Notes: generated by a model from the letters alone, not told the origin. A DNA stretch of 64,000 nt from an uncultured bacterium (GCA_963843795.1 CAWJLW010000006.1:2294001-2358000), one strand, 5' to 3'. Shown: positions 1 to 62,986, counted from the stretch's first letter. Numbers and translations: made by a program.

Positions 1-390
1 AACGCTCACGATTTCGTCTGCTGCGTTTGCGCCAAACCCAATACTCAGTAACAATTGTGTCGCCTTCATCATAGCACATTTTTTTCGCTGGTTCACAACT
101 AACAGCAAATTTTTAGATTTCAACCCTGCTTTTTCCATCTCAGTTGCAACACGGGCGCTTGTAATGAAAATGGCGAATTTAAGTGAATTTGCAAAGGCCC
201 CATTGAAAGAAAATTTCCGTTACAGACAAATCCTCTCTTTTCTTTTATCCACAGGCGACGCCAATTTTGAGAACACGCTCTCAATCCTTCGCAATAAAAC
301 TATAAAACTCGCGTTGCAAGTACTTGCAGGGCACACGATTTAGCTCAATCGCTCCATGCGCGGCGCGATGCATAAATTCGATGCATGATT

Positions 391-1827
391 TCAAGCATGA
401 TTTTCGTGATGGCCTTCTTTATCCGGCGGCAACTGCAAACGCAACGCGATAATACGCAGACGATCGATTTCTTCGACCAACAGATGCGCGCCATTAATTT
501 CAACCTCATCGCCCACCTGCGCCGGTCGTCCCAATTCGTTCATCACCAATCCGGCCACGGTATCGACCTCATCCGAGCGAAAGCCCAAGCCATAAAGCTC
601 GTTCAGTTCGTCGATTAAAACGCGACCGCGCAAACGAATTGTGCCATCTTCGCGTTGGACGATTTCGGGGTCGGGCGCATCGAATTCGTCCTGCACATCA
701 CCAAACACTTGATGCAACAAATCTCCCATCGTGACCAAGCCCGACGTGCCGCCATACTCGTCGATGACAATTGCCATCTGTTGTTGCCGGCCTTTGAATT
801 CGGTCAGTAAACGATCAATGGTAATGGTTTCGGGCACGCGCGGCGCCTCGCGTAACAACGGCATCAGGTTTATTTTGGCTTCGGGTTCAGCATCGCCATG
901 CGGGAGGGTGCTTTCAAAACGCACCAGGTCGCGCAAATGGGCAATGCCCAGAATTTCATCGACCGTGCCGTGATAAACCGGAACGCGTGTGTGCGGTTCG
1001 CTGCGCAAATAATCTAAAAATTCTGCGCGTGTCATTTCGACCGGTAGGGCTTTCATCTCGACGCGCGGCAGCATTGTTTCGCGCGCGGTGATTTCCGAAA
1101 ACTTGACCACGCGATGCAACAATTCGCGCTCGGTCGCAGTAAGCTGACCCCCTTCATGGGCCTGCGTGAACAAAATATCGAGTTCTTCAGGTGAATGTAC
1201 CGAACTGTGTTCGCCGCTGGAATGGATGCCGATGCGGCGCAGCAGAAAATTGCCCGTGCCATTGAGCATCCAAATGAGCGGCGTGAACAAGCGTGCGAAC
1301 AACAGCATCGGGCGCGCGATAATCAGCGTGGTCGATTCGGTTTTGGTAAGCGCGATAGATTTTGGCATCAATTCGCCGACGATGACGTGCAGCGCCGTCA
1401 TCACGAAATAAGCCAATCCAATCGCTACCACGCCGCGCGTGAGACCGCCGCCCGTTTCAGGCAAAAACCCAAACAGCGGTTCGAACAGTTGATGAAAAGT
1501 GCGTTCGCCGATGCCGCCTAATAACAGCGAAGCGACGGTGATGCCGACTTGAGTGGCCGCAATGTAACGATCTAAATCGCGCACGGCACGCTGTACCAAA
1601 ACAGCGGATGCGTTGCCTTCGGCGGCCATCTGGTCGATGCGCGTGCGGCGCACTGCGACCAGGGAGAATTCGGAGGCCACAAAAAAACCGTTCAATAACA
1701 CCAAAAACAGCACGATGCCCAGCGAAACGGCCATCTGCTGAGGCGTCATGTGTTCGACAACGCTGGCTGCCTGAGTAGCGGCGTGAGTCGCGTCGGAAGC
1801 GGATAAAGGAGGTTGGTCAGATGCCAT
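391..1827 (-). CDS. Hemolysin-family (HlyC/CorC, CNNM-CBS-CorC) membrane protein
   Basis: LNGFFVASEFSLV and VIVGELMPKSIA (CNNM/DUF21), a CBS pair with VIDEYGGTSGLVT, and a C-terminal CorC_HlyC domain. Start uncertain. Confidence 0.92.
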   Translation of the reverse strand: MASDQPPLSASDATHAATQAASVVEHMTPQQMAVSLGIVLFLVLLNGFFVASEFSLVAVRRTRIDQMAAEGNASAVLVQRAVRDLDRYIAATQVGITVASLLLGGIGERTFHQLFEPLFGFLPETGGGLTRGVVAIGLAYFVMTALHVIVGELMPKSIALTKTESTTLIIARPMLLFARLFTPLIWMLNGTGNFLLRRIGIHSSGEHSSVHSPEELDILFTQAHEGGQLTATERELLHRVVKFSEITARETMLPRVEMKALPVEMTRAEFLDYLRSEPHTRVPVYHGTVDEILGIAHLRDLVRFESTLPHGDAEPEAKINLMPLLREAPRVPETITIDRLLTEFKGRQQQMAIVIDEYGGTSGLVTMGDLLHQVFGDVQDEFDAPDPEIVQREDGTIRLRGRVLIDELNELYGLGFRSDEVDTVAGLVMNELGRPAQVGDEVEINGAHLLVEEIDRLRIIALRLQLPPDKEGHHENHA

Positions 1828-1911
1828 GAAAATTGTCGCGTCTGGCTCGATGCACTGCGCACGTACTTGCAGCGAGTATGTATGTGCGCAGTGCATCGAA
1901 ACTTAAAACAA

Positions 1912-1963
1912 AAAATGCGAAATGCGTCCGGCGGAAAATTCCGCGTTTAGCATTCCGCATTTT
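1912..1963 (-). terminator. Imperfect hairpin downstream of tRNA-Thr
   Basis: AAAATGCGAAATGC ... GCATTCCGCATTTT inverted repeat, followed by a T-run on the minus strand. Confidence 0.5.
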
Positions 1964-1968
1964 GAAAA

Positions 1969-2045
1969 TGGAGCCGCCTGCCGGAATCGAACCGGCGACC
2001 TTCTCATTACGAGTGAGACGCTCTACCAACTGAGACTAAGGCGGC
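1969..2045 (-). tRNA. tRNA-Thr (CGT), CCA encoded, one extra base before the D-stem
   Basis: Reverse complement reads GCCGCCT TAGTCTCAGTTGGTAGAGC G TCTCA CT-CGT-AA TGAGA AGGTC GCCGG TTCGATT CCGGC AGGCGGC TCCA. Confidence 0.93.
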
Positions 2046-2103
2046 CAACGCCCCTCTATTTTAGCGACAACACAAACCGCTTGCAAGGGCAAATCGCTGC
2101 AAC

Positions 2104-2139
2104 GAATTTTCCGCTGCAAGTACTTGCAGCGGAAAATTC
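2104..2139. terminator. 36-bp perfect palindrome centred on the iterated motif; likely terminator of the hydrolase gene
   Basis: GAATTTTCCGCTGCAAGT|ACTTGCAGCGGAAAATTC lies just past the stop of 2146..2949(-). Confidence 0.6.
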
Positions 2140-2145: not shown

Positions 2146-2949
2146 TCAATTCGCGAAAATTTCATCAAAGAAATTTTTCATCGCTTCCCATGAACGTTTA
2201 TCGGCCTGCGCGTTATAAGCCGCGCCTTTACTCGGATCGTCGCCCGCTCGCGGATCGGTAAATGCGTGAACCGCGCCGCCGTAAGCATTGATCTGGTAAT
2301 TTACTTTCGCATCGCGCATTTCTTTTTGAAACGCCGCGACCTGTTCGTTAGGCACGCTTGGGTCTTCGGCGCCGTGCAGCACCAAAACTTTGCCTTTGAT
2401 ATTCTTGGCGTCATCGGGATTGGGCGTATCCAAATTACCATGAAACGGCGCTGTGCCAACGACATTCGCGCCCGAACGCGCCAGTTCTAAGGCCACGCCG
2501 CCGCCGAAACAGTAACCGATTGCCGCAATTTTACTGGCATCGACGTTCGGATTATCGGCAAGTACTTGCAGGCCCGCAGCGGCGCGCTGGCGCATCAGTT
2601 CGCGATTGGCGCGATATTTTCCGGCTTGCTCTCCGGCTTCTTGGCGATTGGTTGGGCGCACCCCTTTGCCATAAATATCAGCGGCGAACGCGATATAGCC
2701 CAGCGCCGCCAATTCGCGCGCGCGACGCTGTTCGTATTCGCTCAAACCCATCCACGCATGTACCACCAGAACGCCGGGACGCTTGCCCCCAATCGCATCG
2801 TCGTAAGCCAGATAACCTTCCAAAACAGTGTTGCCCTGTTTATATTCGACCAGCCGTTCTTGAATTGTTGCGTGTGCAGATTTGCTCAACACATTCGCGC
2901 TCAAACTCATCACAGCAGCGATGCCCAGAGCGGCCATTTGATTTTTCAT
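2146..2949 (-). CDS. Dienelactone hydrolase family protein with signal peptide
   Basis: G-Y-C-F-G-G nucleophile elbow, HGAED and AVHAF motifs, N-terminal signal-like segment. Confidence 0.92.
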   Translation of the reverse strand: MKNQMAALGIAAVMSLSANVLSKSAHATIQERLVEYKQGNTVLEGYLAYDDAIGGKRPGVLVVHAWMGLSEYEQRRARELAALGYIAFAADIYGKGVRPTNRQEAGEQAGKYRANRELMRQRAAAGLQVLADNPNVDASKIAAIGYCFGGGVALELARSGANVVGTAPFHGNLDTPNPDDAKNIKGKVLVLHGAEDPSVPNEQVAAFQKEMRDAKVNYQINAYGGAVHAFTDPRAGDDPSKGAAYNAQADKRSWEAMKNFFDEIFAN

Positions 2950-3982: not shown

Positions 3983-4215
3983 GACTTTTAGTATGTCTGC
4001 AAATGCGAAGAAGCGGCTGCAAGTACTTGCAGCGCGCTCTAGCCGACAAAATTGATAAAATATGAAGCGCAACGTTCGATTGAGCGTTGCGCTTTCGTTA
4101 TTCGCATTTGGTCATCAATTCGTTGTCACATTGTGACTTTTTGTGTTCCTCGCCGTTTTCGTTTAGCTGTTTTCAGCTTCCGATCAGCCATTATTTTGTT
4201 CTCATGGGAGAAACC

Positions 4216-7200
4216 ATGCAGTTGCGCTTTGCCGCTTTGTTGGCGGCTTTTTTGTCCGTGTCCACTTCGTATGTCGCGCGGGCGCAAACCAAGCCCAAAA
4301 ACCCCGTTCCTTTAGAAAACCGCGCCGAAGCGCAAAGCATTGTCAAACAATTGCTCCAAGAAGGCCGCATTATCGACCCGAAAACCGTGAAACGCGGAAT
4401 GCGTGGCGTGGCCAAAAGCGTGTTTCAGGGCACCAAAATCGAAGAATTTCCCATCGAAGTGCTGGGCAATTTATCGAACGCTAACGGCGGCGGCGACATC
4501 ATTCTCATCAAAGTGCTGGGCGGCCCGGTCGTTAAGCGCCAATCGGGCATTATTGCGGGCATGAGCGGCAGTCCGGTTTATATCAACGGCAAAATGCTGG
4601 GCGCGATTGCGCTGGGTTGGGGCTTTCCCAAAGAACCTATCGGCGGAGTTACACCCGTCACGCAGATGATCGAATCTGCTCTACCCAACAGCCCGAATTC
4701 TAAACCCAAAACTGCCGCAACATTCACTGCTCCCAAAATTGCAGGCATTAACGGAACCAGTTTCAGCGATTCTTACAAGCCGGATCTACCGCTGAAATTA
4801 GCGGGCAAAAGTATCGCGCGCGTGGAAATTTCGCGCGACAAAAAGCGTCTGGCGCTACGCGGACCGGATGATAATGCGACGATGACCATGCGACCGGTTT
4901 CGACATTATTGCAGTTGAACGGTTTTTCCGAGGCGTCATTGCCGCGTTTACAAAAATTGTTCGAACCGTATGGCGTCGAGCCTGTTTTGGGCATTCCGTC
5001 CAAGAAAACCGGCGTCAAGGCGAATTTGGAACCGGGCGCGGCGATTGGCGTGCAGTTGGTTTCGGGCGATATGGATCAAACTGCGGTCGGCACGGTTACG
5101 TTTCGCTGGGGGCGGCGCTTGTTAGCTTTTGGTCACCCGATGTTTGGTCAGGGCACGGCAAGTTTGCCGATGACGACGAGCTATATTCACGAGATTTTTC
5201 CATCTTATCAGCGCTCCTTCAAATTGGCTTCACCAATTGATACCGTAGGCGCGCTACAACAGGACACGCAGTTCGCGATTGGCGGTACGGTCGGCAGCAA
5301 GGCCGATACGATTCCGATGTCGATTGCGATTCAGCAGCCGGATCGTCAGATCGCCAAAACTTATCATGTGCGCGTGATGAAAGATCCGATTCTCACGCCG
5401 CAGCTATTGGCGAGCGTGGCGGGCGAAGCGATTGAAACCACTTTGGGTCAGAGCAGCGACAAAATGGTGAACGTCGGTCTGAGCATGAAAATCGACGGCG
5501 CGCAAACCGTCAAGCGTCATAATCTGATGTATGCTCAGGGCGCAATTACCGGTGCGGCGCTGAATGATTTGCTGCAAACGCTGTCGCTTTCACAATCGAA
5601 CGAATGGACGCGTGGCAGCATTTCTCGTGTCGATCTGACAGTTTTAGTCGAACCCAAACGCCGCACCGCGACCATTAAAACCATCACCGCCGACCGGAAC
5701 AAAGTCAAAGCAGGCGAAACGGTTGGTGTACGCGTCGATCTGGAGCCGACCGATGCGCCGGGCCAGATTATCTCCAAGAATTTTCAGTTCACCGTGCCTG
5801 CAGACGCACCCAATGGCGTTTTGAGAATTGGCGCGAGCCTGGCAGCCAATTATTGGAATATGCAAGTGCGCGTTGGCGGCGCACCGCCCGACCCGACCAA
5901 CCTGCCGCAGTTATTGCAAGCGTGGGATAAAGTTGGGCCGATGAACGAACTGTTAGTTGTCGCTTCGACGCCGCGCCGCTATCTCAAAGTGGGTCAGCGA
6001 AAAATCGAAGACGTGCCGCCGACGTTTGCGACTTTGATGAAAACTGCGCCGATTAGCGAAGTCGGTTTGTATAACGAAGTCGAAGTGCGGCGCGAAGACA
6101 CCGATTTCATGCTCGATGGCACGCAGCTTTTGCTGTTGCCAGTAACCAGCGCGCGCCAACCCGACAGTTCAACCACGCCAGCCAACGAAAATCCGGTCGC
6201 GGTGCCACCCAGCGATGCACTGCCCGGAGGCGAAGTTTCAACCCAAGCGCCCGAAGTTCCAGGCGCGGTCGATCCCGGCGATGGCACACCCGATCCCGGC
6301 GGCCCCAATGACCCGAACAACGATCCCGGCGATGACAACGATGTCATGTCGCAGAACGCGATGTTTGCCAGTTGGCGCGCGGACGCAGACAACAGTTTTG
6401 TTCCAAAATCGGCGCGTTTTATCAGCCAAATTAAAGCTCTGCAGGCGCAAAGTCAGCAGGCACAAATGTGGCAGCGGCGCGTGCAAGTACTTGCAGCGCG
6501 CGGCGCGGGCGCGTTGGACGTGCGCACCGTTCTAAGCGAACGCAATCAATTGAAAATGCGCGCCACTAAAACGAAGAACAATGCAGAAGTCGATTCCGAG
6601 CCGCAGCAAATTTTGAATCCGACGCCGACGCCAATTCCCACGCCGACCAAAGCTCCTGCTGCGCCGGGCGTTGGCCCGTTGCAAACCCCAACGCCTTCAG
6701 CGACTGCGACCGCTACGCCCATTCCCACGCCGAGCAGCAAAACGCTGGCGCGCCCGTCTCAATCTTGGGTGCAAACACCTACCGATTTTTTGCGCGGCCA
6801 GTTCGATGGCTCGCAGGTTTCGAGCGCGGGCCGTTTGCAAATCGCGCCCGCTTCGAAGTTGCTTATTAAAACGTCGGAACCTTTCGTATGGAGCGTAACC
6901 GCCGACACCAAGGGCAACACGTTTTTGGCGCTCACCAATCCGGCGCGCATCGTGAAAATTGCGCCCGATGGCGCTTCGACGACCTTATGGCGCGGCGATG
7001 ACCTGGCGGTTTCAGCCATGACCAGCGACAAAGCTGGCAACATTTACGCGGGCCTGACGCCTTCGGGCAATGTGCTGCGCATCGCTCCCGATGGTAGCGC
7101 GATTTCCATTCTAAACACGCGCCAAAGTTTTGTGGGCGCGCTGGAGTGGGATGCAAAAAATCGTTTGTTAATCGGGAGCGGCGGAACAGAAGGCAAACTT

Positions 7201-13714: not shown

Positions 13715-13813
13715 TATGCCTTGCAAGTACTTGCAGCGACTTGCAGGGCGCCTGTAGTGATTGCTATAATGGTCTGTGTTCGGACGGGTAACCGAATAGA
13801 TTTCCGCCCTTCA

Positions 13814-13885
13814 GGGCGATTAACTCAGCGGGAGAGTGCTACCTTCACACGGTAGAAGTCGCTGGTTCGATCCCAGCATCGCCCA
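13814..13885 (+). tRNA. tRNA-Val (CAC), CCA not encoded
   Basis: GGGCGAT TAACTCAGCGGGAGAGT G CTACC TT-CAC-AC GGTAG AAGTC GCTGG TTCGATC CCAGC ATCGCCC A. Confidence 0.95.
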
Positions 13886-13888
13886 TCG

Positions 13889-13924
13889 AAAACGCGCCCT
13901 GCAAGTACTTGCAGGGCGCGTTTT
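13889..13924. terminator. 36-bp perfect palindrome on the motif; terminator candidate after tRNA-Val
   Basis: AAAACGCGCCCTGCAAGT|ACTTGCAGGGCGCGTTTT. Confidence 0.7.
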
Positions 13925-17749: not shown

Positions 17750-17795
17750 AAACCACAAAGCGCGCTGCAAGTACTTGCAGCGCGCTTTGTGGTTT
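17750..17795. terminator. 46-bp perfect palindrome on the motif
   Basis: AAACCACAAAGCGCGCTGCAAGT|ACTTGCAGCGCGCTTTGTGGTTT after the stop of 17809..18651(-). Confidence 0.7.
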
Positions 17796-19671: not shown

Positions 19672-20058
19672 TTAAGCCTGAGTATTATCATATTGCACGA
19701 TTTCAAATGGAAACGAGCAATCTTCCTTGAATTCCTCGGCCAGTTCAGCGATGCGTTCGTTATTTTCGTCGTAAAACCATATCGTCGAAACTCTCTGATC
19801 TGCATTGTGTGCTTCTTCAAGCAGATCGAAAATATCCATCATCACTTTGACACTGCTCGTATTCAGATAAAGCAAGTGCAATTCGAGTCGCACTGACATT
19901 TCATTTTGCAGGCGCTCTTCGATCCAACCCAGCAAAGGCGTAAAAAACTCGAAAGTATTTTCTGGATAGGAATCGCCACGCATAATGACCGTTCCGCTTT
20001 GCGCCGAAGCGTGAATAGCAGGTGTCGCCTGTGTGGGAGCGAAATCAAGATCGTTCAT
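19672..20058 (-). CDS. siaC: SiaC-like phosphoprotein (DUF1987)
   Basis: TPAI, GDSYPEN, YLNTSSVK and AEEFKEDCSFPF motifs. Confidence 0.9.
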   Translation of the reverse strand: MNDLDFAPTQATPAIHASAQSGTVIMRGDSYPENTFEFFTPLLGWIEERLQNEMSVRLELHLLYLNTSSVKVMMDIFDLLEEAHNADQRVSTIWFYDENNERIAELAEEFKEDCSFPFEIVQYDNTQA

Positions 20059-20090
20059 AAAGGTTGCAAAAGTATCGGTTTCAAACGGCC

Positions 20091-27520: not shown

Positions 27521-27624
27521 ACCGTAGAATGGCGCTGCAAGTACTTGCAGCGCCATTTTGGTTTGCAATGCTGCAACTTTTGCCGGTGCAAGTACTTGCA
27601 GCACAGATGCCCTTATTATTCAAC

Positions 27625-28252: not shown

Positions 28253-28302
28253 AAACCTAAAAAGCCGCGCTGCAAGTACTTGCAGCGCGGCTTTTTAGGT
28301 TT
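28253..28302. terminator. 50-bp perfect palindrome filling the gap between convergent genes
   Basis: AAACCTAAAAAGCCGCGCTGCAAGT|ACTTGCAGCGCGGCTTTTTAGGTTT. Confidence 0.78.
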
Positions 28303-28877: not shown

Positions 28878-31800
28878 TCACGCTGCTACACGCTGCGCCG
28901 CCAGATCATCGACCAGCCTAACCGACATAATTGTCGAGACGCCGGGTTTTTGCATGGTAATTCCGTATAGCACATCGGCTGCCTGCATGGTGCCATTATT
29001 GTGCGTAATCACCAGAAATTGCGTCTGGTCGGTAAATTCGCGCAGCAGTTGCGTGAAGCGCCCGACGTTGCTTTGATCGAGAGGCGCATCGACCTCATCC
29101 AAAACGACAAACGGACTCGGACTGGTTTTTAACAACGCCAGCATGAAAGTCAAAGCCGTCAAAGCGCGTTCGCCGCCCGATAAAAGCGCGATATCCTGCT
29201 GCGATTTGCCCGGAGGTTGCACGCGCAATTCGACGCCGGTTTCCAGCAAATTGTCCGGCTGGGTGAGCGATAAAAACGTTTGTCCGCCATCGAAAACGCG
29301 CTTGAACAGTTCGTCGAAATGCGCGCGCACGGTTTCAAAAGTTTTCATGAATTGTGCCCGCGTGCGGTCATCGATATCTTCGATAATCGCGTTCAATTCG
29401 TCGCTCGCCTGTTGCAAATCGTCGCGCTGCGCGACCAAAAATTCCAACCGTTCGCGCACTTGTTCGTGCTGCACAATCGCACCGCGATTGACTTGACCCA
29501 AAGCGCCGATTTTCTGCGTTAGTTCGCTAATCTCCTGCAAAGCGGCACCTTTGTGTTCGATGTCGTCTTTGTGGGCGCGCGCGCTTTCGGGCGTCGTGTC
29601 GAATTCTTCGCCAAAGCGCCGAATCATTTCAGCGATTTCAGCTTCGGTCGAAGCCAAACGCACTTCAACGCGGTGCAATTCTTCTTCGGCGTCGCGCAAT
29701 TCAACGCGCGCAGTTTTGAGAGCCGCGCCCGTGTTTTCAATTTCGGTCACGATTTGCGCGCGTTCGCTGCGTTCGCGCGTGTTGCGTGCTTCCAAATGCT
29801 CGCGCCGCTCTTGCAATTGAGCCAAAAGAGCCACGCTTTCGGCTTCTTGTTGCACGATGCGCGCGTCTTCGCCGCCGGCGCGTTCGATGCCGGTTTGACG
29901 CGAACGAATCTGGGTTTCGGCTTCGACAATGCCACGCTCGACTTCACCAATTGCGCGCCGCATCGCATTCAATCGCTCCTGCGAGGCCGAATAATCGGCA
30001 CGCACCTGCGAAACCGAATCGGCAATAGCTTCGCGCTCGTTTTGCCGCAGTTGCACCAACTGCTGCGCGCGTTTGACATCTTCATCTAAAGCGCGCGCAC
30101 GCTCATCCGCATCGTCGGCCACGCCGCGATCTTCGTTCTGGCGCGAAGTTTTGGCAGACAGTGAAGTCAGTGTGTTATTGAGTTGGTGAATCACGCCATC
30201 GCGGTCGTTTTTCAATTTGCGCTGTCCGCGCTGTAAATGCTCGATTTCACGCTCCTGCCGCGCGATTTGAGCGCGCACTTCGTTGGCTTTTTCCTGCTGG
30301 TCGCGCAAAGAATTTTGCTCGGCAAGTACTTGCAGGCGCGCTGTATCAGCTTCGGATTTCTTGTTGTCGATCTCAGCGCTTTGCTCGTCGATCAAACTTT
30401 CCAGTTCATCCAATTCGCGTTTACGCGCCAATAAACCGGACGTTTTCTGCTTGCCCTGCCCGCCGGTAATCGCGCCCGAAGGCAAAACCAGTTCACCTTC
30501 CAGCGTCACCAAGCGGCTGCCCATATCGCAGCGCGGCGCCAGTCGCGTGGCAATATCGACATTTTCAACGACGAGGACGCGCCCCAGCAAATATTCAATC
30601 GCGCGTTCGAACTGCGCGTCACATTCGACCAGTTCCGAAGCCAAACCGACGACGCCATTTTGTCCTAAAACCTCGCGCGTGCGCTGACCCGCGCCGGATG
30701 GACGTAGGGCTTCCAATGGCAAGAAAGTCGCCCGTCCAGCGCGATTGTTTTTCAGCCATGCAATCGCAGTTTTGGCTTGCGCGTCGCGCACGCAAATCAG
30801 GTTATTGACCGCGCCACCGAGCGCAATTTCAATCGCGGTTTCTAATTCCTGTGGAGCGCGAATCGCATCGGCCACGAGCGTGTAGTTGTCTTGCAATTGT
30901 CCACGCCCGACAGCCTGCAAAACCGAGCGTGCGCCGCCCTGCACGCCTTCCAAATTTTGCTCCAATTCGCGTAGCGCGCCCAAACGCGATTGACGGCGCG
31001 CGCGTTCTTCACGCAATGCGCTCGCAGATCGTTCGATTTCAGCCAGCGCATTTTGCGCATCATTTACTTTCACACGCGCATTTTCGGCATCATCTTTCAA
31101 TTGCGCGGCTTGCTTTTGACTCGCAGCGAGTTCGTCGTTAGCTTTTTGCTGCGCGGTGACGAAACTGGCGTTTTCGTTTTCCAAAGTTGCGGCCAATTGT
31201 TGCAATTCATCGCGGCGATTTTCCAGCGCGACGATTTCGGCGCGTCCGGTCGCCATTTTCTCGCGGCGCTGCTGGCCTTGCCGCATCAATTCGATAACGC
31301 GATTTTGCAAATCTTGCAAAGCGCGCGTTGCTTCCTGTAAATGGACGTTGGCCGCGCCCAGCGATTTTTCCGCATCTGCCGCGCCCTCGGACAGTGCGCC
31401 TGCCGATTGCACCGCGAGCTGCAATTCGCGCTTTTGCGCCGCTAAATTTTCACGCGCCGTTGTAACGCGCGCGCGCAGTAAGCCGATTTCCTGCGCCAGA
31501 AATTCTTGTTGTTCGGTCAGGGCGCGACGGCGTTCGCGCGCGACGGCGATTTCGCCTTCGGTGGCTTTTAAGCGCGTGATGACATCAGTGGCTTGCGCTT
31601 GCGCGCTTTCCATCGAGCGCTCTAATTCCGCGCGTCGCGCTTCCAACTGTTGCGCTTCAGTTTCCTGTTTTTCAATGGTTGCCAAACCCGCTAAAACGGT
31701 TTCGGTTCCGCTGTCTTTGGATTGTCGCAGACCTTCCAAGCGCGTCACTCGCAAATCGTATTCACGCGCCAACATGGCCAGTTGCAAGTACTTTAAGCGC

Positions 31801-37641: not shown

Positions 37642-37683
37642 AGCAAAGGACGCGCTGCAAGTACTTGCAGCGCGTCCTTTGCT
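37642..37683. terminator. 42-bp perfect palindrome between convergent genes
   Basis: AGCAAAGGACGCGCTGCAAGT|ACTTGCAGCGCGTCCTTTGCT. Confidence 0.72.
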
Positions 37684-42662: not shown

Positions 42663-44609
42663 ATGAAAGCGCGTGTTTTCGCATCGCCACATTTCTGGCC
42701 ACTGTTATTCCTCATTACGCTGTGTTGCGCACTGTGGGCCGATGTTTTATTTGGTGGCCGAATCTTGCTGCCGGGCGAGATGCTGCGCGGTTTCGCGCCT
42801 TTTGGCAGTGACGCAAACGCGCCATGGACGATTTTAAAATGGGATGCTTTAGCACAATATACGCCGTGGCGTATGTTCGCTGCGCGCGAATTAGCGGCGG
42901 GTCGCATTCCCTTATGGAATCCGCATCAATTTTCCGGCGCGCCGTTTGTCGCGAACGGCCAAAGCGCAGTTTTTTATCCGCTGAACGTGCCCTTTTGGAT
43001 ATTTGATGTGCCGCGCGCTTTCGGCATCGTGGCGTGTTTGCATTCGCTTTTGGCGATGTGCGGAGCCTATTTTTTGTGCGTGCGCTGGCAATTGTCGCGC
43101 GTGGCGGCGCTGTGCGGCGCGACGGCGTTCGGCATGAGCGGTTACTTGATTTCGTGGAGCGCGCTGCCAACTTTGAGCGAAACCGCTTCGTGGCTGCCGC
43201 TGTTAATTTTGCTGTTCGAGCGCACGACTGACGAAAAGACGCGCAGCAGGTACTTGCAACAACTTTCACTATTCGCCATTGCGTTGTGCTGCGCATTGTT
43301 GGCTGGACACGCGCAAATCTGGGCATTTCTAGTGATTGCCTTAGCATTGCGTGCGCTATTTTTATGGCGCTGGAGGGCGCTGCAAGTACTTGCGGGCGGC
43401 GTTCTGTGGGCAATCTGCTTATCGACACTGCAATTGTTGCCGCTGCTGGAATTAGCGCGTTTAGGGCATCGCGCGGGCGCAACCGCAAGCGCGCAAGGTT
43501 GGGCGCAAATTCAACTTAATGCGCTGCAACCATTCGATTTACCCAGTTTGATAGTTCCGAACTGGCCGCAATGGTCGTGGAGCGAAAATTTTGGTTATCA
43601 AGGCGTAGTCACGCTGGTTCTGGCATTTATAGCGATGGGAAGCGGAGTCAAAAAACTGCGCGCTTTGAGTTGGCGTTCGCCAAAGTTCTTCGCGATGGCA
43701 TTAACGTTATGCGGCTTGATTTACGGAATGGGTTTGCCGCCGACTTCGCTGGCTTATTTTTACATTCCAGGCTGGGCGCAGTTGGCGGGCGCGGGGCGCG
43801 CGCTGCTGTGGTGGAATCTGGGAGCGTCGTTGCTGGCCGCGTTCGGTATTCAAGCCTTGTCGCAACTGCTGGCGCGCTCGCGGCCCAAAGATCGGCGGCT
43901 CGTGTTGAGTTTAATCTTAGTGTGTTTAGTTGTTGAATTAGGTTTCAATGCGTGGAATAATCGCGTCACTTCTGCGCGCGCGGAAATTTATCCACAAACC
44001 GCATTAACCAGTTGGCTTCAAAAAAATCTGAAAAGCGATGAACGCGTGGCGTTCATTACGCCGCGCGAAGGTTGGTTCCCCAGCGAGCAATGGCAAGCGA
44101 ACGGGCGCAATCATCCGCCAGGTGTTTTACCGCCCAATGGCGCGATGGTTTACGGCTTAAGCGATGTCGGCGGCTACGATTCGCTCGCACCGCGAGCCTA
44201 TCGACAGTTCATCAACGAGGGCGAAGGGCGCGATGTCGCGCCGCTGTACAACGGAAATATCGTCTTGCCCGCTGCCGATAACGCAAATTTCCCCGCGCTA
44301 AAGGTACGTTATATTGTGACTTTGGAAAGCCAACGCGCGCCCGGAACGGAAGTTTGGCGCGGCGAAAATGTGGTCGTTTGGCGACAAGAGTTGCCAAACG
44401 GCAAGGCGAAAAGTGGGGCCGATTTTTATCCGGGCTGGCATGAAGGCCAATATCAGCCGCAAAGCTTTCGTCTGGGAGCGTGGATTTCGCTGTGCGCGCT
44501 TTTCCTGTGCGCTTTTGTCGGCGCTTTACGCAACCTCAAAAAGGAAAAACTGTCTTCACCACACTCGTTTTCTAGTGGTATACCAAAACAAGAACAAGGA
44601 GAAGTATGA
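42663..44609 (+). CDS. YfhO-like polytopic membrane protein (putative GT-C)
   Basis: GRIPLWNPHQFSGAPFVANGQSAVFYP, LAGHAQ, GGYDSL, FYPGW and YQPQSFRLG. Confidence 0.82.
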   Translation: MKARVFASPHFWPLLFLITLCCALWADVLFGGRILLPGEMLRGFAPFGSDANAPWTILKWDALAQYTPWRMFAARELAAGRIPLWNPHQFSGAPFVANGQSAVFYPLNVPFWIFDVPRAFGIVACLHSLLAMCGAYFLCVRWQLSRVAALCGATAFGMSGYLISWSALPTLSETASWLPLLILLFERTTDEKTRSRYLQQLSLFAIALCCALLAGHAQIWAFLVIALALRALFLWRWRALQVLAGGVLWAICLSTLQLLPLLELARLGHRAGATASAQGWAQIQLNALQPFDLPSLIVPNWPQWSWSENFGYQGVVTLVLAFIAMGSGVKKLRALSWRSPKFFAMALTLCGLIYGMGLPPTSLAYFYIPGWAQLAGAGRALLWWNLGASLLAAFGIQALSQLLARSRPKDRRLVLSLILVCLVVELGFNAWNNRVTSARAEIYPQTALTSWLQKNLKSDERVAFITPREGWFPSEQWQANGRNHPPGVLPPNGAMVYGLSDVGGYDSLAPRAYRQFINEGEGRDVAPLYNGNIVLPAADNANFPALKVRYIVTLESQRAPGTEVWRGENVVVWRQELPNGKAKSGADFYPGWHEGQYQPQSFRLGAWISLCALFLCAFVGALRNLKKEKLSSPHSFSSGIPKQEQGEV

Positions 44610-46140: not shown

Positions 46141-46174
46141 AAACGTGCCCTGCAAGTACTTGCGGGGCACGTTT
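46141..46174 (+). terminator. Motif-centred hairpin followed by a T-run
   Basis: AAACGTGCCCTGCAAGT|ACTTGCGGGGCACGTTT(TTT), one U.G wobble. Confidence 0.65.
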
Positions 46175-46235
46175 TTTGTCTCCTATTCGTTGCAAGTACT
46201 TGCCATACTGTTTTGCGTCGAATTTTTGATTTCTC

Positions 46236-48812: not shown

Positions 48813-48845
48813 GAAGACACTGCAAGTACTTGCAGTGTCTTCTCA
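48810..48845. repeat. 36-bp perfect palindrome whose left arm includes the kinase stop codon
   Basis: TGAGAAGACACTGCAAGT|ACTTGCAGTGTCTTCTCA. Confidence 0.9.
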
Positions 48846-48888
48846 TTCACATTTCACACTGCAAGTACTTGCAGTAGTATTTTCCTTC

Positions 48889-50145: not shown

Positions 50146-52080
50146 TCAACGCGTTGCCACAACATTTTGTGGCAGCACAATTCCCTGCCCTGAAGGATGA
50201 AATTCGGGTACAAAACTCGGCACTTGGACGGCGCGCCCGGCCAGTTCGCTCATCGTGACACAGCGATAACCACGCGCGCGCAGTTCATTCAGCAAAATCG
50301 GCAACGCCTTCGCGGTTTGCGGTGCGGAATCGTGAAATAACAGTACTTGTCCCGGCGCCAAACGTTGCAGCACACGGTTGACAATTTTTTGCGGATCGGG
50401 TTGTTCCCAATCGCCGGAGTTGTTGCTGGTATCGGCGCGCACCATCTTCAAATCGTGCAGCGCGTTTAAGGCTTCGAGCGAATAATGACAACCGGGCGCG
50501 CGGAACCAGCGCGGCGCGATGCCAATCACATTTTCGATGATGCGATTGTTGCCCGCGATTTCTTCATGCCACTGCTCGGCACTTAACTTTACGCCCTGAA
50601 AATGGTGCCACGAATGATTGGCGATGTCGTGTCCTTGAGCAGCTTCCTGACGCAATAAATCGGGATGTTTTTCGACATTGCGGCCGACGACAAAAAACGT
50701 TGCGGGCACATGGAAACGGCGAAGTTGTGCCAAAATTGCTGGCGTGCCCGTGGGATGTGGGCCGTCATCGAACGTCAAGGCCACGATTTTTTCATCATCC
50801 AAACCATTGGAAAACGTTGTCCACGGAATCGCGTTTTGCACGCTGCGCAACTGCGCATAATTGTCGCGCGCCAGAGTCGCGGTCTGCTGTTGCAATAATT
50901 GCGATTGCGCATCGTCCAAACGCAAAACAGTGCGCCCATCTGCCGTGCCAGGCTTGTCAATTTGCGGCGCAATGGCGCTTGTTAAAGCGCCGCGTCCAGT
51001 TGTTGTGGTTGCATCCAACGATAATGCCGGACGACGCGTATCACGCGGCGCGCCCAGTGGCGCGGTCGCGCGCAATTCTGGCGCGAGCATAGAAGGCGCA
51101 TTTTCTATCATTGCAGCGCGCGGAAAATTGGTGACGGGTGCGGTCAAATCTTCTATGTTGATATTTTCGCTCAAAAGCGGCGGTTCTTGGGGCGCGGCGC
51201 GTTCGATATGCGGCGGCGACACAGCGCGATTTTCCATCACAACGTCGCGCGTCGGAGAAATAGACACTGCAAGTCCTTGCGGCGTGTTAGTCTCGTTGGG
51301 CGCGATACTAAGCGTGGGTGGCGGCACACGGCGCGACCAATCGTCGCGGCTCAATGCGACGTGCGAACTGGATTCAACGGGAGTTTGCGTGCGTGAAGTT
51401 TCGTCAAACGAGTTCACATTCATCGCGTGACGCGCGTCTTCGTTTTGCGGCGCGCGATTGACAATTGGCGGCGCGACAGGTAGTGGAATCGGCGCTTCGC
51501 GCATCGCCAGCGTTGTGCGTGGAGTAGCAGGAGCAGCTACCATCGGTGCAGATTGTGGCGCGGCAAGGAGTTGTTCTTGCGCTGCGGGCGCGGAAATTTG
51601 CGGAGGCGTGCGAACTGTGGCAACGGGCGCGGCAAGTACTTGCGGGCTATAGGTGTTGGGCAGGCCTTCGCGCAACAGCACAAGGCGCGCGCGCAAAATG
51701 GTTTGATCGCCCTCGTTTTGGAGCGGGCCGATGGCGATAATTTGCGCGGCGTTGCGCAAAGCGGCGAACTCCAGCGGGCGCAATTGACCATCTGGCGTCC
51801 ACATTTGCGTGGCGTCATCGGTGGCGATCAAGCGCGTGGCAGTTTCGCGCGCCGCGCCCATTTCAACTGCACCGCCTTCGGCGCGCATCACCAAAACATC
51901 GGGCTGCAAACGCAAGAGGCCGCGCTTGGAATCTAAACCGACAATCGTACCATCCAGACGCCATTCGCGCGTGCGGGCCGCCATTTCATTAGGTGTATTT
52001 TGCGCGCGCGCGGGCAGCGCCATGCACGAAATTGCAACAGGCCACAACCACAGGGCGCGCCGATTTATTTTAGCTTTCAT
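50146..52080 (-). CDS. Secreted polysaccharide deacetylase (CE4/NodB) with N-terminal beta-barrel domain and Pro-rich linker
   Basis: ALTFDDGP, NHSWHH, FRAPG and LLFHD. Confidence 0.9.
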   Translation of the reverse strand: MKAKINRRALWLWPVAISCMALPARAQNTPNEMAARTREWRLDGTIVGLDSKRGLLRLQPDVLVMRAEGGAVEMGAARETATRLIATDDATQMWTPDGQLRPLEFAALRNAAQIIAIGPLQNEGDQTILRARLVLLREGLPNTYSPQVLAAPVATVRTPPQISAPAAQEQLLAAPQSAPMVAAPATPRTTLAMREAPIPLPVAPPIVNRAPQNEDARHAMNVNSFDETSRTQTPVESSSHVALSRDDWSRRVPPPTLSIAPNETNTPQGLAVSISPTRDVVMENRAVSPPHIERAAPQEPPLLSENINIEDLTAPVTNFPRAAMIENAPSMLAPELRATAPLGAPRDTRRPALSLDATTTTGRGALTSAIAPQIDKPGTADGRTVLRLDDAQSQLLQQQTATLARDNYAQLRSVQNAIPWTTFSNGLDDEKIVALTFDDGPHPTGTPAILAQLRRFHVPATFFVVGRNVEKHPDLLRQEAAQGHDIANHSWHHFQGVKLSAEQWHEEIAGNNRIIENVIGIAPRWFRAPGCHYSLEALNALHDLKMVRADTSNNSGDWEQPDPQKIVNRVLQRLAPGQVLLFHDSAPQTAKALPILLNELRARGYRCVTMSELAGRAVQVPSFVPEFHPSGQGIVLPQNVVATR

Positions 52081-52200: not shown

Positions 52201-54892
52201 ATGTTTTCTCGTTTTCAAGCCTTCAAACTGTTCGCGCTGTGGTTGTGTTTAGCCACATTTTCCGCCATGAGCTATGCCCAAACCGCCGATCCGCCCGTTC
52301 GCTATTACGTCGCGCCCAACGGCAACGACCAGTGGACAGGACGCAGCGCCACGCGCAAAAACAACGATGGCCCATTTGCAACGTTAAGCCGCGCTCGTGA
52401 TGCCCTACGCGCCGACCGCGCGAACCTTTTGCTGCCGCGCGGCGCAACGGTCAGCATCGCGGGCGGCACATATTTCCTCGCCGAGCCATTGATTTTCACT
52501 TCGCAAGACAGCGGAAGCCAAAACGCGCCAATTCTGTATGCCACAGCGCGCGGACAACGCGCCATCTTCAGCGGCGGACAACGCCTCAATAATTGGAAGA
52601 AAGTTGGCGAGCGTTGGGAAACGGTACTGCCTGAAGTGCGCGCTGGGAAGTGGAATTTCATTCAATTGTGGCGTAACAACGAGCGCAAAGCGCGTCCGCG
52701 CTGGCCGGAACAAGGCTACAATTTTATCGACCATACCGTCGAACCCTCACCGCAATCCGCAGGCAAAGGCCACGACCGTTTCGGCTTCAAAACCGGCGAT
52801 GTCAAGCCGGATTTTCACAATCCTGCAGATATCGATTTTTTGATGATGCAAGTGTGGACGATGGCGCGCATGAAAGCGCAGAACATTGATTTCGAAAAGC
52901 GCGAAGTCACTTTCAGCAGCCCGACGCGCACCTTGCAGTGGTATGGCTCGTTTCCCAAAGGCAATCGCTACATTCTGGAAAACGTGCGCGAAGCCCTGGC
53001 GCCCGGCCAATGGTATCTCGACCGAAAAACGGGCGTGCTGACGTATTGGCCGCTACCCAATGAAACTCCGCAAAATTCGCAATTCATCGCACCCCGTTTG
53101 GAATCTTTAGTGGAATTTAGGGGCACAGAAGATAAGCCGATTTCGGATATTTCTCTACAAGGTTTGAGCTTTCAACATTCCAACTGGGCCACGCCCGACC
53201 AGGGCAATGCCAATATTCAAGCCGAAGTTGATATTCCTGCTGCGATTCGCGCGGTCAATGCGCAACGTATTCGGCTGCAAGATTGTGAAATTTCGCACAT
53301 CGGCCATTATGCAGTCAGCTTTGGTCGCGCCTGTCATGACAATCAACTGCTGAATTGCCGTCTGGGAGATTTGGGCGCGGGCGGCGTAAAAATTGGCGAA
53401 ACCGGCAACAGTGACGACGCGCAGAGTACTTGCCGATAAAACTCTGGTGCGCAATTGTTTAATCGCGCATTTCGGGCGTTTGCATCCGGCTGCGGTTGGT
53501 GTGTGGATCGGCCATTCGCCAAATAATACAATCGACCACAACACGATTATCGACGGTTATTACACCGGGATTTCGCCCGGTTGGAGCTGGGGTTATGGCA
53601 AAAGTGGCGCTTATCACAACACGCTGACCAACAATCACATCGCGCAAATCGGTCAGGGCGTTCTCAGCGATATGGGCGGTATTTACACTCTCGGTGTTTC
53701 GCCAGAAACCGTCTTGCGTGGCAATGTGATTCACGATGTGAACTCGTTCGATTACGGCGGCTGGGGCATTTATTTCGATGAAGGCACAACCGGTGTAATT
53801 GCGGAAAACAACCTAGTGTATCGCACCAAAAGCGCCGGTTTCCATCAGCATTACGGACGCGATAACTTGGTCAAAAATAACATTTTTATCGACGGTCACG
53901 AAGCGCAACTGATGCGTTCGCGCGAAGAAGATCATCTTTCGTTCAAAATCCAGAACAACGTTATCGTCTTCTACGACCGGCCTTTGCTGGGTTCGAACTG
54001 GAACGGCACGCGCGACAATTTTCAGCTCGATTCCAATTTGTATTGGAACACGGGCGCGGAACCGCTGAGTTTCGCGGGCAAGACGCTGGCGCAATGGCAG
54101 GAAAGCGGACAAGACAAAACTTCAGTTGTCGCCGATCCGCTGTTCGTCGATGCCGCGCACGATAACTTCAATTTGCGCCCCAATTCGCCTGCGCTGAAAA
54201 TCGGTTTCGTGCCTTTCAATTGGTCGAATGCGGGCGCGCACGATGCGAATGGCAAACTTCTCACTTTGAATTCTGTGCCGCAAACGGCGCGCGCTTTTCC
54301 GCCACCACCGCCGCCGCAACCTTACGCGGAAGATTTCGAGAGCGGAGAAATCGGCGCGAAATCGAGCTTTGTCACTAATGAAGAAAACGAAACCGCGACT
54401 GCGCGCTTGAGCACCGAACAATTTTCGCCGTTTGAAACCAGTCGCCAAAGTTTAAAATTCACCGACGAAGCGGGCCAGAAATTTACTTACAGCCCGCACG
54501 TTTACGCCGCGCCCAAACTCAGTGGCGCATTGGTTGGCCGCTTCGATATTCGCCCCGACCAAAACGCACAAATTTCGCACGAATGGCGCGACAATAAAAA
54601 TCCGTATCATACCGGCCCCGCGCTCTACATTCAGAATGACGGCGCGCTGCAAGTTGGTGGCAAAACTTTGATGACGTTGAAGGCGAAAACGTGGTATCGC
54701 TGCGAAATTCGTTACACGACCGGAACAGACAAATGGAGCCTGCAAGTACTTGCGCCCGATGGCACGCGCCAAAACTTCGATAATCTCACCTGCGACGCGA
54801 ACCTGAAAAGTTTGGATTGGTGGGGTTTCGTGTCGAACGGCACCGTCGCGTCCACATGGTTTCTGGATAACGCGCGCGTCGGCCTGCAGTGA
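52201..54892 (+). pseudogene. Secreted right-handed beta-helix protein split by an apparent +1 frameshift near 53424
   Basis: 5' part YYVAPNGND..GPFATL...LGAGGVKIGE; 3' part SDMGGIYTLG..GWGIYFDEG..HYGRDN. Removing G53424 joins them as ...DDAQVLADKT... Confidence 0.82.
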
Positions 54893-60829: not shown

Positions 60830-60966
60830 GATTCTCTCCTCGCGTCTTTCGTCACTCGTTACGACTTGATACTAATTGCCGCCTATTTTATCAGAACTGG
60901 CACTGCGCGTCCGCCAAAATGGGTGCTGCAAGTACTTGCATCTTCTCTTGTAGCGCCCGTTTTCGA

Positions 60967-62886
60967 TTATTCCTCGCCTGCACCGCTCATGCCGCCCAGC
61001 ATTCCGCCCAGCAAATCGGAAATATCCATCGCTTTACCGCCGCTAATATCTTCGTCGCCGTGCGCGCCCTGAATCCAGCGCGCATACAAAGCGCGAAGCT
61101 GCGGAGCCTGATTGGGAGCCGCATTCGTCATCGCGTTCATTAAATCACTCGCTGTTGCCACGCCGTTATCATAGCGCGCGTAATAATTGCGCAGTGCGGT
61201 GAAAAACGCCGCATCGCCCATTTGTTTGCGCAGCGCATCGTAAAACAACGCGCCCTTGCCGTAAACAATCGCGCCATACTGCAGGTTACCGCTGTACTGT
61301 GAGGTGCGCTTGTTGACCGGCGCATCGGCGTTGCCCAGCATTCGGCCCATCGAATACGAAGTTTTGAGGTGCAGGTCGATCATCTGCTGTGCTTTGGCTG
61401 CGCCATAGCGATCTTCGAAATAAATCATCGCGCTGTAATTGGTCAGGCTTTCATCCAGCCACGGCGCGCGCTGCGAATCGCTGCCCACACCAATCGCCCA
61501 CCACTGATGCGCCACTTCATGCGCGACAGTCACTTCCAGCAACGAATCGAAAATCTGCTTTTGTTCACCCAGAATGCCGCCCAGCATATCGGCCGCCGGA
61601 TTATTGGCATCGGCTCCTTCATTGACTGGCGCTTGGCTTTGAGTTTGGCCGCCATAGGCTTCGTTTTCTAAATCGCCCAGAAAATCGCCCATCTTTCCGT
61701 CCATTCCACCCGCGCCCAACGATTGACCCAATGCACCCAGCTGCGCGCCCAAATCTTCATAAAGCATTGAAGCAATCGCCGTCATGCCAGAATATTCCAT
61801 ACCGCCCGCGCCGCCGCGCATCGGGCCTTCGGCGACGATAAAGCTGTCATACGGATACGGCCCGAAACGTTTGGCGTAAATTTGCAGCGCGCTGCCCGCG
61901 ACATCAATCACTTCATTGGCTTTGGCCAGATGTTTCTGTGTCGTGAAAGCCTGCACGTTGACGTTTCTGCCGCCGACATTGAAAACCTTACTGCGCGGCA
62001 CGAACGCATCGCTCATCAAAACCGCGCAATCGCGCACATTGTTAAGCTGAAAACTCTGCACGCTGCGCATTCCCACACCGCGCCGGGAAGAACGCTGTCC
62101 GGGCGCGACCACCATCACAGTCGGCGGAACATCAAAACTCACATTGTAATCGCTCATTTGCGCATACGCCACGTCTCCCAAACCTTCGGGCGCCTCATCA
62201 ATCCAGCGCCCGTTTTGGCGCATCGCCAGCGTCGGATACCAGAACGCGCCCAGGCTCAGAACCTCGCTGCCATAAGAATACAAACCGTAATCGACATTTT
62301 TCGGCTTGGCGGTTTCGGTTGTCGGCATTCCCAGCAAACCGCCAACATCGCTGCTTAGGCCGCCCATCATTTCCATGATGCCGCCGCTGCCTTCGGGCGC
62401 GCGCGGAACGACGCCGTGCCATTTCAGATGCAACGTGACCGGTGAATTCTGCGCGTTCGTCCAACTGGTGCGCAAAACTGCGCCCTCTAATTTCCAGTTG
62501 ACCGATTGCCCATTTATTTCCACGCTATCAATCGCCACGTTCAAGCGCTTGTCATCGGCGCCGCCAACGCCGCCCGCATTAGCGAAGACGAAAAAAACCG
62601 CATCGCGCAGGTTTTCGCCATTGGTCGGAACCGTGATGTCGCCCTCGGCGCGAAACGTCATCAGTTGCCAATCGATGGTCGCGCGCATTTGATAGTTGGG
62701 CCGCACGTTTTGCGTTTGTCCGGTCACGATAGTAGAAAGTTCTCGCAACAGCGGTACGCTCGCCACGCTCGCGCTGATAGTACGCACGCCAGTCGCGCCG
62801 CTAACGACCTGATTCACCGCGTATAACGGAGCGGCGACAACGACCAAAGCGAGCGCGGCACGCCCGAAAAGAGGAACAGTTTTCAT
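60967..62886 (-). CDS. Secreted M1-family (gluzincin) metallopeptidase
   Basis: GGMEY, HEVAHQWW with a downstream E (WLDESL), and YGKGALF. Confidence 0.9.
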   Translation of the reverse strand: MKTVPLFGRAALALVVVAAPLYAVNQVVSGATGVRTISASVASVPLLRELSTIVTGQTQNVRPNYQMRATIDWQLMTFRAEGDITVPTNGENLRDAVFFVFANAGGVGGADDKRLNVAIDSVEINGQSVNWKLEGAVLRTSWTNAQNSPVTLHLKWHGVVPRAPEGSGGIMEMMGGLSSDVGGLLGMPTTETAKPKNVDYGLYSYGSEVLSLGAFWYPTLAMRQNGRWIDEAPEGLGDVAYAQMSDYNVSFDVPPTVMVVAPGQRSSRRGVGMRSVQSFQLNNVRDCAVLMSDAFVPRSKVFNVGGRNVNVQAFTTQKHLAKANEVIDVAGSALQIYAKRFGPYPYDSFIVAEGPMRGGAGGMEYSGMTAIASMLYEDLGAQLGALGQSLGAGGMDGKMGDFLGDLENEAYGGQTQSQAPVNEGADANNPAADMLGGILGEQKQIFDSLLEVTVAHEVAHQWWAIGVGSDSQRAPWLDESLTNYSAMIYFEDRYGAAKAQQMIDLHLKTSYSMGRMLGNADAPVNKRTSQYSGNLQYGAIVYGKGALFYDALRKQMGDAAFFTALRNYYARYDNGVATASDLMNAMTNAAPNQAPQLRALYARWIQGAHGDEDISGGKAMDISDLLGGMLGGMSGAGEE

Positions 62887-62986
62887 AAATTCACCGCTTA
62901 AAAATGGCCTGCAAGTACTTGCAGGCGCAACTGATGGAGAATGACTTGCAAGGCAGTGCGTCCATCAATTACGAGGACAACCTATT

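Follow-up and report, generated by a model that had tools for sequence, protein, structure and literature searches.

The window analysed here, a 64,000-bp stretch of the genome of an uncultured bacterium (G000:C6:2294001-2358000), contains 40 exact copies of GCAAGTACTTGC, a perfect palindrome of 12 bp, between positions 316 and 62922 (316..62922), and the whole genome of 4.3 megabases (Mb) contains 2,567. The palindrome is a word of the highly iterated palindrome (HIP) type with dialects like those of DNA uptake sequences (DUS), yet it is neither HIP1 nor a described DUS or uptake signal sequence (USS). Its density is controlled, its copies in genes originate mostly by substitution, its flanks are phased with the DNA helix, relatives carry dialects of it, and its occurrence goes together with that of an orphan DNA methyltransferase and with the absence of a nuclease-fold protein. 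The dialects in some relatives, and the near-erased core in others, suggest an undescribed 'self' label on DNA. We tentatively favour the reading that the palindrome may be a methylated, species-specific self-mark for uptake of the cell's own DNA, like HIP1, DUS, and the RAATTY word of Campylobacter. Other G numbers denote genomes of relatives; the seven motif genomes are G000 and six relatives with dialects around AGTAC (G001, G006, G009, G012, G015, and G019).

Abundance, placement and spacing

None of 100 dinucleotide shuffles of the window contains a copy of GCAAGTACTTGC. Allowing up to two mismatches raises the count in the window to 56 (40 exact, 10 one-mismatch, and 6 two-mismatch copies), where shuffles average 2.8; about 3 of the 16 near-copies are expected by chance. 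For the whole genome, Markov models predict 0.65 copies (order 3) or 1.2 (order 5, with the motif masked), and the 2,567 exact copies compare with 506 for all one-mismatch variants taken together. The spread is even: 35 of the 36 full 100-kb bins of the 3.6-Mb main contig hold 47-83 copies, the first bin holds 30, and the density is uniform from origin to terminus. The copy at 27588 is spanned without differences by one contig of sequencing run X1, possibly the source of the assembly, and an assembly artefact is unlikely because syntenic metagenome contigs of other species (62-69% GC) have a close dialect. A single DNA run with 0.23 of the words found is possibly the source; no RNA run is listed. 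The first-pass annotation had counted about 40 exact copies and a dozen near-copies in 64 kb and had read them as a lineage-specific, genome-wide signal rather than the operator of a regulon. The evenly spread genomic copies, against an expectation of about one, agree with this, and the enrichment is not restricted to the window.

Genes were predicted with our own gene caller (3,366 in G000). Among 2,563 non-overlapping copies in the genome, 1,792 are intergenic (70%; 2.9 per kb) and 771 lie in genes (0.21 per kb). Copies occupy 1,102 of 2,239 tandem gaps, 227 of 437 divergent gaps (with 257 copies), and 273 of 427 convergent gaps, the class most often occupied. Convergent-gap copies are usually the centre of hairpins made of an A-tract, a GC stem and a T-tract, and a perfect inverted extension of at least 8 bp surrounds 498 of 2,562 copies; we infer that use in terminator hairpins is a secondary role of the palindrome. 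The window has 22 copies in tandem gaps, 6 in convergent gaps, 5 in divergent gaps, and 7 in coding sequence, and 29 of its 41 intergenic gaps of at least 20 bp hold a copy, in keeping with the earlier statement that most gaps do.

Within genes, the palindrome leaves an imprint on the encoded proteins. The tetrapeptide QVLA occurs 575 times in G000 proteins versus a permutation mean of 43, with the motif codons used in 513 cases versus 2.3 expected; ASTC (141, expected 4) and KYL (311, expected 97) are also in excess, and there is a frame bias. Residues under in-gene motifs are 29% identical to relatives versus a background of 59% (113 alignments, which are not independent, as smc recurs), and at least 88 of the 113 sites have no alignment gap nearby. 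This low identity, together with the mostly gap-free alignments, indicates that in-gene sites arise mostly by substitution at tolerant positions. No unusual cluster of sites stood out in a gene-by-gene look at G000, and site density has no link to a codon-bias proxy of expression apart from a slight dip in the top octile.

The intergenic majority of copies and the perfect extensions would also suit a mobile repeat of the repetitive extragenic palindrome (REP) or miniature inverted-repeat transposable element (MITE) type, spread by a REP-associated tyrosine transposase (RAYT), or a favoured terminator stem. A Y1 transposase is present in G000, and alignment gaps near in-gene sites are about three times the background (25/113 versus 199/2,560). 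However, most in-gene sites are gap-free, the flanks are not common between copies, the spacing is regular and unclustered, and the coding copies and those in divergent gaps are numerous; we regard this explanation as largely refuted, with a minimal chance of being right. The first-pass annotation had listed a RAYT among possible cognates, a point that is refined here: the local RAYT is flanked by different, GTAG-type REPs (GTAGGGYGCRGGTCTC; 27 copies in the genome), which rules out the palindrome as its REP. The RAYT gene (L174:1096-2670, on C6 near 752 kb) lies between GTAGGGCGCGGGTCTC-type REP doublets, with one ordinary copy of the 12-mer nearby. A further repeat, GACACCAGCCACGTCC / AGCCACG, probably a GTAG-type REP, is abundant in the g2 clade (L041 and L042 of G016; L035 and L036 of G007; L115 of G018), often as inverted pairs and sometimes at coding positions; G016 has 8 Y1 transposase matches.

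In-gene copies fill the spaces between intergenic copies, and it is density that matters, not position. In G000, in-gene copies number 0.075 per kb where an intergenic copy is less than 100 bp away but 0.49 per kb at a distance of 2-3 kb, and the density rises with distance also in G009 (0.26 to 1.1, in 400 kb), G012 (0.12 to 1.1, in 160 kb), and G006 (0 to 0.28, in 240 kb). Gaps over 4 kb are rarer in G000 than in 500 simulations (80 versus 129±6.5), sites repel one another over 0.4-2 kb, the coefficient of variation of the spacing is 0.55-0.75 in relatives and 0.89 in G000, and there is one site per 0.8-2.6 kb, depending on the species. Mapped against origin, terminus and islands, as had been proposed for the 12-mer, the density is uniform along the chromosome, and the two longest gaps of G000, 26 kb each, are islands rich in insertion sequences (ISs); the motif is depleted in such islands and in small contigs. 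More than 2.5 kb from a site, the G+C content at third codon positions is 0.66 rather than 0.71, probably an effect of islands, and this difference is not used as evidence here.

Saturation near one site per kb is what Elhai's ratchet for HIP sequences predicts, according to the accessible text of PMC4390886. A ratchet of this kind belongs to the view, in our estimate improbable, that the palindrome is a strand signal for methyl-directed mismatch repair, in which a nicking factor would read the hemimethylated site and biased repair would go on making sites until no base is more than about 1 kb from one. The repair ratchet explains the spacing, since both the saturation near one per kb and the repulsion over 0.4-2 kb are as that model predicts (PMC4390886, same portion); an orphan methyltransferase and MutL are present, and any resident replicon, phages included, would be affected. 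However, MutH and SeqA were each found in 0 of 5 genomes (92-97% complete; E. coli control positive), phased flanks are not predicted, and with about 3,400 GTAC sites outside the motif in G000 the 12-bp requirement needs an extra specificity factor.

Range-limited spacing and the depletion in IS-rich islands and small contigs would likewise fit an intracellular self-mark for defence or recombination, a two-way counterpart of Chi, where a translocating nuclease or recombination enzyme would be checked at the methylated site and DNA with no site nearby degraded. A comparable role is discussed for HIP1 in the available part of 10.1101/2024.09.10.611283, and AGTACT is dense, as mimicry would give, in the phage-like contig L365 (10 in 5.1 kb, six within the primase gene). 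No corresponding enzyme was found, though, a 16-mer scan of IMG/VR yielded only 6 single matches, in contigs without G000 homologues, and the phased flanks find no explanation, which makes this possibility very improbable in our view. The regions L365:1967-5036 and L362:2192-5612 belong to phage-like metagenome contigs (tape measure, primase, DnaB-like helicase; O-like initiator) that bear the host palindrome.

In the window, exact copies start at 316, 2116, 2558, 2972, 4019, 6483, 9084, 11404, 13723, 13901, 14722, 17767, 18709, 23494, 27537, 27588, 28272, 28855, 30322, 32548, 33742, 35272, 37657, 39091, 39470, 41356, 43382, 46152, 46192, 48822, 48861, 50006, 51632, 54742, 54918, 55601, 57874, 59529, 60928, and 62911; the ten one-mismatch copies at 1859, 22644, 22656, 25987, 32478, 42628, 43246, 51269, 52166, and 58447; and the six two-mismatch copies at 23482, 27487, 31784, 34959, 41344, and 50121. 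The orientations assigned earlier are right (28272 convergent; 4019, 32548, 39470, 55601, and 62911 divergent), as are the claims that both tRNAs are flanked and that smc contains a copy. The tRNA-Val gene (13814-13885, plus strand) lies between exact copies at 13723 and 13901 (13723..13912), and the tRNA-Thr gene (1969-2045, minus) between the one-mismatch copy at 1859 and the exact copy at 2116 (1859..2127). Two pairs are about four helical turns apart, 40 bp at 46152..46203 and 39 bp at 48822..48872. The copy at 28272 is the centre of a perfect inverted repeat with 19 bp more on each side (28253..28302), a probable two-way terminator in a convergent gap; that at 17767 has a 17-bp perfect extension on each side (17750..17795) in a terminator-type hairpin, and that at 37657 one of 15 bp (37642..37683) in a convergent gap.

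The copy in smc (28878-32459, minus) at 30322..30333 is read as ...RLQVLAE..., where orthologues show different residues in an alignment without a gap, and the copy in the dienelactone hydrolase gene (2146-2949, minus) at 2558..2569 as ...GLQVLAD.... The remaining coding copies are in a gene for 1604 amino acids (4204-9018, plus; copy 6483..6494), near the 5' end of the gene at 27568-28248 (plus, start uncertain; copy 27588..27599, 51 bp from the copy at 27537), and in the genes for a YfhO-like protein (42663-44609, plus; 43382..43393), a polysaccharide deacetylase (50146-52023, minus; 51632..51643), and a beta-helix protein (53411-54892, plus; 54742..54753). Elsewhere in the window, at 19672-22614, SiaC, DUF6272 and HAMP-SpoIIE genes adjoin a GGDEF gene in a SiaABCD-like signalling cluster.

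Helically phased flanks

The A/T content around the dyad of G000 sites has symmetric maxima at about ±14.5, 25, 36, 46, and 57 bp. This phasing can be followed to about ±80 bp and has a period of 10.55-10.65 bp, as against 11.2 for AA/TT in the genome as a whole. It persists in 511 deep-coding and 865 non-hairpin intergenic sites; 2,639 non-motif GTAC sites have no phasing. The phase in G009 and G015 is as in G000 but weaker, and the signal in G001, G012, and G019 is too weak to judge. In addition, the distances within 238 pairs of sites (17-120 bp) show a phase of 10.45 bp (R 0.35, Rayleigh Z 28.9), which places the two sites of a pair on the same helical face. Judged by DNA geometry, the DNA would be curved with the major groove at GTAC inside, and methyl groups would project there. 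The phased context, of about 150 bp, is a structural clue to the reader protein.

A nucleoid site explains this phasing at least as well as uptake does. On this view, an abundant nucleoid protein with sequence specificity would bind the palindrome at regular intervals, perhaps at the tips of supercoil loops, and bend or wrap some 150 bp there, with selection keeping the coverage even; we hold this to be unlikely. In its favour are the phased maxima at motif sites, also in the deep-coding and non-hairpin sets and not at the 2,639 other GTAC sites, the close pairs in phase at 10.45 bp, the uniform distribution from origin to terminus, and the proposal of such a role for HIP1 in the accessible text of PMC5861425. 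Against it, the histone fold (PF00808) is in none of 31 genomes searched, each of 5 genomes has one HU, and AP2-domain candidates, which each of the 7 motif genomes has, turn up in 11 genomes without the motif as well. Moreover, density does not depend on the expression proxy except for the slight top-octile dip, the flank period differs from the genome-wide 11.2, and the exported-nuclease exclusion and site-free close relatives described below are left unexplained. Two stand-alone basic AP2-domain proteins are encoded in G000 (L317:1947-2465 and L318:1983-2444) and are conserved in 18 of the 31 class genomes.

The Topo-Seq motif of E. coli gyrase is also symmetric and periodic at the helical repeat, and extends over about 130 bp (PMC6379681), and the 4-bp stagger of gyrase cleavage could fall on GTAC if the palindromes were strong gyrase sites. 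That G000, G005, G006, and G009 each have a single GyrA/ParC-family gene, and that convergent gaps are most often occupied (273/427), would agree with this. The A/T maxima of gyrase, taken from the A row of Table DS10 of that paper with T supplied by symmetry, are at 18.5, 29.5, 39.5, 50.5, and 60.5, however, so that the phase is about 4 bp off per arm and the dyad-centred correlation is negative (r -0.52); gyrase is also without a strict 12-bp central word. Gyrase is accordingly a far-fetched candidate. A separate topoisomerase IV was not found in the four genomes with one GyrA/ParC-family gene each (L332).

Methyltransferase, candidate nuclease and dialects in relatives

Genome G000 encodes one N6/N4 methyltransferase (P0001, L071), an orphan, and neither a D12 (Dam-type) nor a C5 methyltransferase was found there in a search limited to these families. 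Orthologues of P0001 are present in 22 of the 31 class genomes, two of them with stops, and in 7 of 7 motif genomes. Its DPPY motif, we presume, points to N6-adenine methylation. In 59 pooled verrucomicrobial loci with homologues, a set without gene-free controls, GTAC is the most depleted of 256 tetramers (0.54; CTAG 0.57), and it is near zero at homologue-bearing loci in two other phyla. This avoidance points to GTAC as the putative specificity of the orphan enzyme; homology did not yield a specificity, the best named matches being at most 36% identical. The first-pass annotation had looked to a GTAC methyltransferase as a possible partner, and such a candidate thus exists and is conserved. 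In G041 and G014 (L083:1026-1892, L090:2261-3055), and also in G005, the methyltransferase gene is immediately preceded by a HARE-HTH/Mrr gene, and the two are close together only in these three genomes. Other words are under-represented in G000 as well, namely GGWCC (0.28), CCWGG (0.49), GATC (0.47), and many 6-bp palindromes, although a search of three families turned up a single methyltransferase.

In G003, G017, and G020, a gene for a protein of 215-240 amino acids is located no more than 3 kb from that of the methyltransferase. Its AlphaFold model (predicted local distance difference test score, pLDDT, 91) has its best structural matches in NhoI (Z 7.5), MutH (7.0), DpnI (6.3), and PvuII (6.3); none reaches Z 8, and the best Foldseek E is 0.013. 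With these middling scores, the protein may have the PD-(D/E)XK fold of restriction enzymes. Of the 12 family copies examined, 10 start with a hydrophobic, signal-peptide-like stretch, as do 90 of 117 homologues (judged by simple hydropathy rather than SignalP), which suggests that the protein is exported. It was detected in none of the 7 motif genomes and none of 9 others, but in 13 of 15 motif-free genomes that have the methyltransferase (Fisher p 2e-4 for the exclusion, a value overstated by kinship); a family profile found nothing among the predicted proteins of G000 (best E 0.52), and G017 provides a within-genus contrast, with the nuclease present and the motif absent. The absence of a protein with such an N-terminus from motif genomes ties GTAC to DNA outside the cytoplasm.

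GTAC is at most 0.28 of expectation in 12 of 13 nuclease carriers (0.54 in G003; samples of 17-67 kb), and 0.60-0.98 in six of the nine genomes with neither gene. In Abditibacteriaceae and Verrucomicrobia, the family is a candidate for an exported endonuclease that cuts GTAC. Homologues of the family (L114:2414-3061, L089:680-1396, L374-L382, P0121-P0240) occur in cyanophages and giant viruses. In cyanophage Syn1, whose homologue is 28% identical, 40.6 kb of sequence contain no GTAC, and in P-HM1 the word is at 0.29 of expectation; both phages are also without CCGG, which bacterial carriers do not avoid. The cultured A. utsteinense encodes both methyltransferase and nuclease, and is therefore probably without the motif. 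Should the exported nuclease prove real, a restriction enzyme secreted to act at the envelope would be of interest in its own right.

The labels of homologues place G000 in the Abditibacteriaceae, as the first-pass guess of Abditibacteriota had it. The survey of relatives that it proposed gave a divided answer: the exact 12-mer is not common property (0-3 copies in each of 40 GTDB relatives searched), but six have dialects with an AGTAC core. AGTACT reaches 750-1,230 per Mb in six of the 31 genomes of the class, and in 14 it totals at most 33 copies; most relatives without the motif are purged of GTAC. Read from samples of the genomes, the dialects are CAAAGTACTTTG in G001, TCGAGTACTCGA in G009, G015, and G019, CGAGTACTCG in G012, and a 24-bp form, AGTACGGTCG-AWWT-CGACCGTACT, in G006; syntenic contigs of metagenome sets have CAAGTACTTG, close to the form of G000. 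In-gene positions are rarely common across dialects (G001 4/38, G009 3/123, G012 3/84, G015 1/22, G019 0/13, G006 0/38), no better than control hexamers, and the near-dialect metagenome sets share 6/18 and 4/12 G000 sites. In a quick smc tree, drawn without G015 and G017 and leaving g1, g6, g3+g5, and g4+g2 unresolved, the terminal branches of G000 (0.57) and G006 (0.51), which have the longest strict motifs, compare with 0.16-0.18 for their sisters, in this one gene.

Candidate uptake mark and known systems

Evidence from sequence does not separate uptake, recombination, methylation and chromosome organisation. We rank uptake of own DNA first because of the DUS-like anatomy, the precedents for methylated palindromes, the competence genes (secretin, PilM, ComEC, and DprA are encoded), and the exclusion of the envelope nuclease. 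The central GTAC would be methylated by the family's orphan methyltransferase, and a two-fold symmetric protein would read the core and 3-4 flanking bases per side, bending the DNA towards itself. During natural transformation, the site would initiate the uptake of DNA from the same species, and gaps would gain new sites through biased uptake and subsequent recombination. In sister lineages, discrimination would depend instead on a genome purged of GTAC and an exported nuclease that cuts it, and the motif and the nuclease or purged states were never found together in the genomes compared. A wider version, possible but doubtful, is that one GTAC methyltransferase serves two mutually exclusive systems for telling own from foreign DNA at the envelope, either an exported GTAC-cutting enzyme with a purged genome or, after its loss, a methylated, helically phased, species-specific uptake palindrome that has this GTAC as its core and evolves dialects. 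If true, an uptake signal would have been born from a restriction-modification site and be read by a bending receptor.

Several observations count against the uptake reading. ComEC is present in 30 of 31 genomes, so that competence genes do not separate motif genomes from others; searches for histone, HU, AP2, ComP, MutH, and SeqA brought out no reader protein, ComP_DUS (PF16732) being found in 0 of 5 genomes in a search that lacked a positive control. A simple pattern picks out 37 prepilin-like proteins. The phasing to ±80 bp and the in-phase pairs suit a chromosomal bending protein at least as well, classical DUS and USS are non-palindromic, and phage-like contigs dense in the motif are not obviously predicted by uptake-driven drive. 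The proposed specificities of methyltransferase and nuclease derive from word avoidance; GTAC is avoided in G016, G025, and G002, where neither gene was found, and G004 and G007 have the methyltransferase with neither a nuclease match nor an AGTAC motif. The compared genomes are kin with few independent contrasts, and G001, G019, and G015 are 63, 77, and 89% complete.

Among known systems, the E. coli SlmA site (GTGAGTACTCAC) has AGTACT in common with the palindrome, and the g6 dialect has GAGTACTC in common with it. There are a few dozen SlmA sites, which keep away from the terminus, whereas the palindrome is spread uniformly over the chromosome in thousands of copies. A/T tracts at helical spacing are also a feature of the USS of Pasteurellaceae; here the phasing is two-sided to about 80 bp, the DUS of Neisseriaceae and USS are not linked to methylation, and no ComP-family receptor was found. 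A described DUS or USS is ruled out as the identity of GCAAGTACTTGC, a perfect palindrome, and no paper with the 12-mer was found in the literature searched. Like DUS and USS, as far as the available parts of PMC3630211 and 10.1101/2025.10.24.684340 describe them, the palindrome has near-perfect copies in the thousands, dialects that keep a fixed core, permissive positions in coding sequence with a frame bias, use in terminators, and its longest gaps in IS-rich islands.

HIP1 (GCGATCGC) and the alternate HIPs of cyanobacteria are a further parallel. Like them, the palindrome is in many-fold excess near one per kb, in and between genes, spaced more regularly than random, and has lineage variants, and HIP1 and alternate HIPs surround the site of an orphan methyltransferase, as the palindrome would with the GTAC specificity proposed here (PMC4390886 and PMC5861425, accessible portions). 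Methylated HIP1 raises transformation, according to 10.1101/2024.09.10.611283 and PMC13756078. Here, the phylum and the word are different, the length is 8-14 bp (24 bp in one genome) around a GTAC core, and phased A/T flanks, systematic terminator use and alternation with an exported nuclease are added. HIP1 proper, which goes with GATC and CGATCG methyltransferases, is ruled out, as the word and phylum differ, CGATCG and GATC are under-represented in G000 and no Dam-type or C5 methyltransferase was found there. In Campylobacter jejuni, a palindromic methylated word, RAATTY, the site of CtsM, is needed for uptake of own DNA (PMC10046745, citing Beauchamp 2017; in the part available). The mark there is the 6-bp methylase site, whereas here a site of presumably 4 bp is embedded in a longer, species-specific word, and phasing is missing at most other GTAC sites.

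The earlier judgement that the palindrome is identical to no known uptake, HIP1 or SlmA word is borne out. No description of it was found in the literature searched, which left out subscription journals and bioRxiv supplements, where it may be mentioned. To our knowledge, hyperabundant genome words are known mainly from Neisseriaceae, Pasteurellaceae and cyanobacteria. In the Abditibacteriaceae, one core is saturated in some genomes, neutral in others and purged in yet others, alongside several dialects, a methyltransferase candidate and a motif-excluding gene, and these side-by-side states turn the question of how HIP-type words originate into a comparative test.

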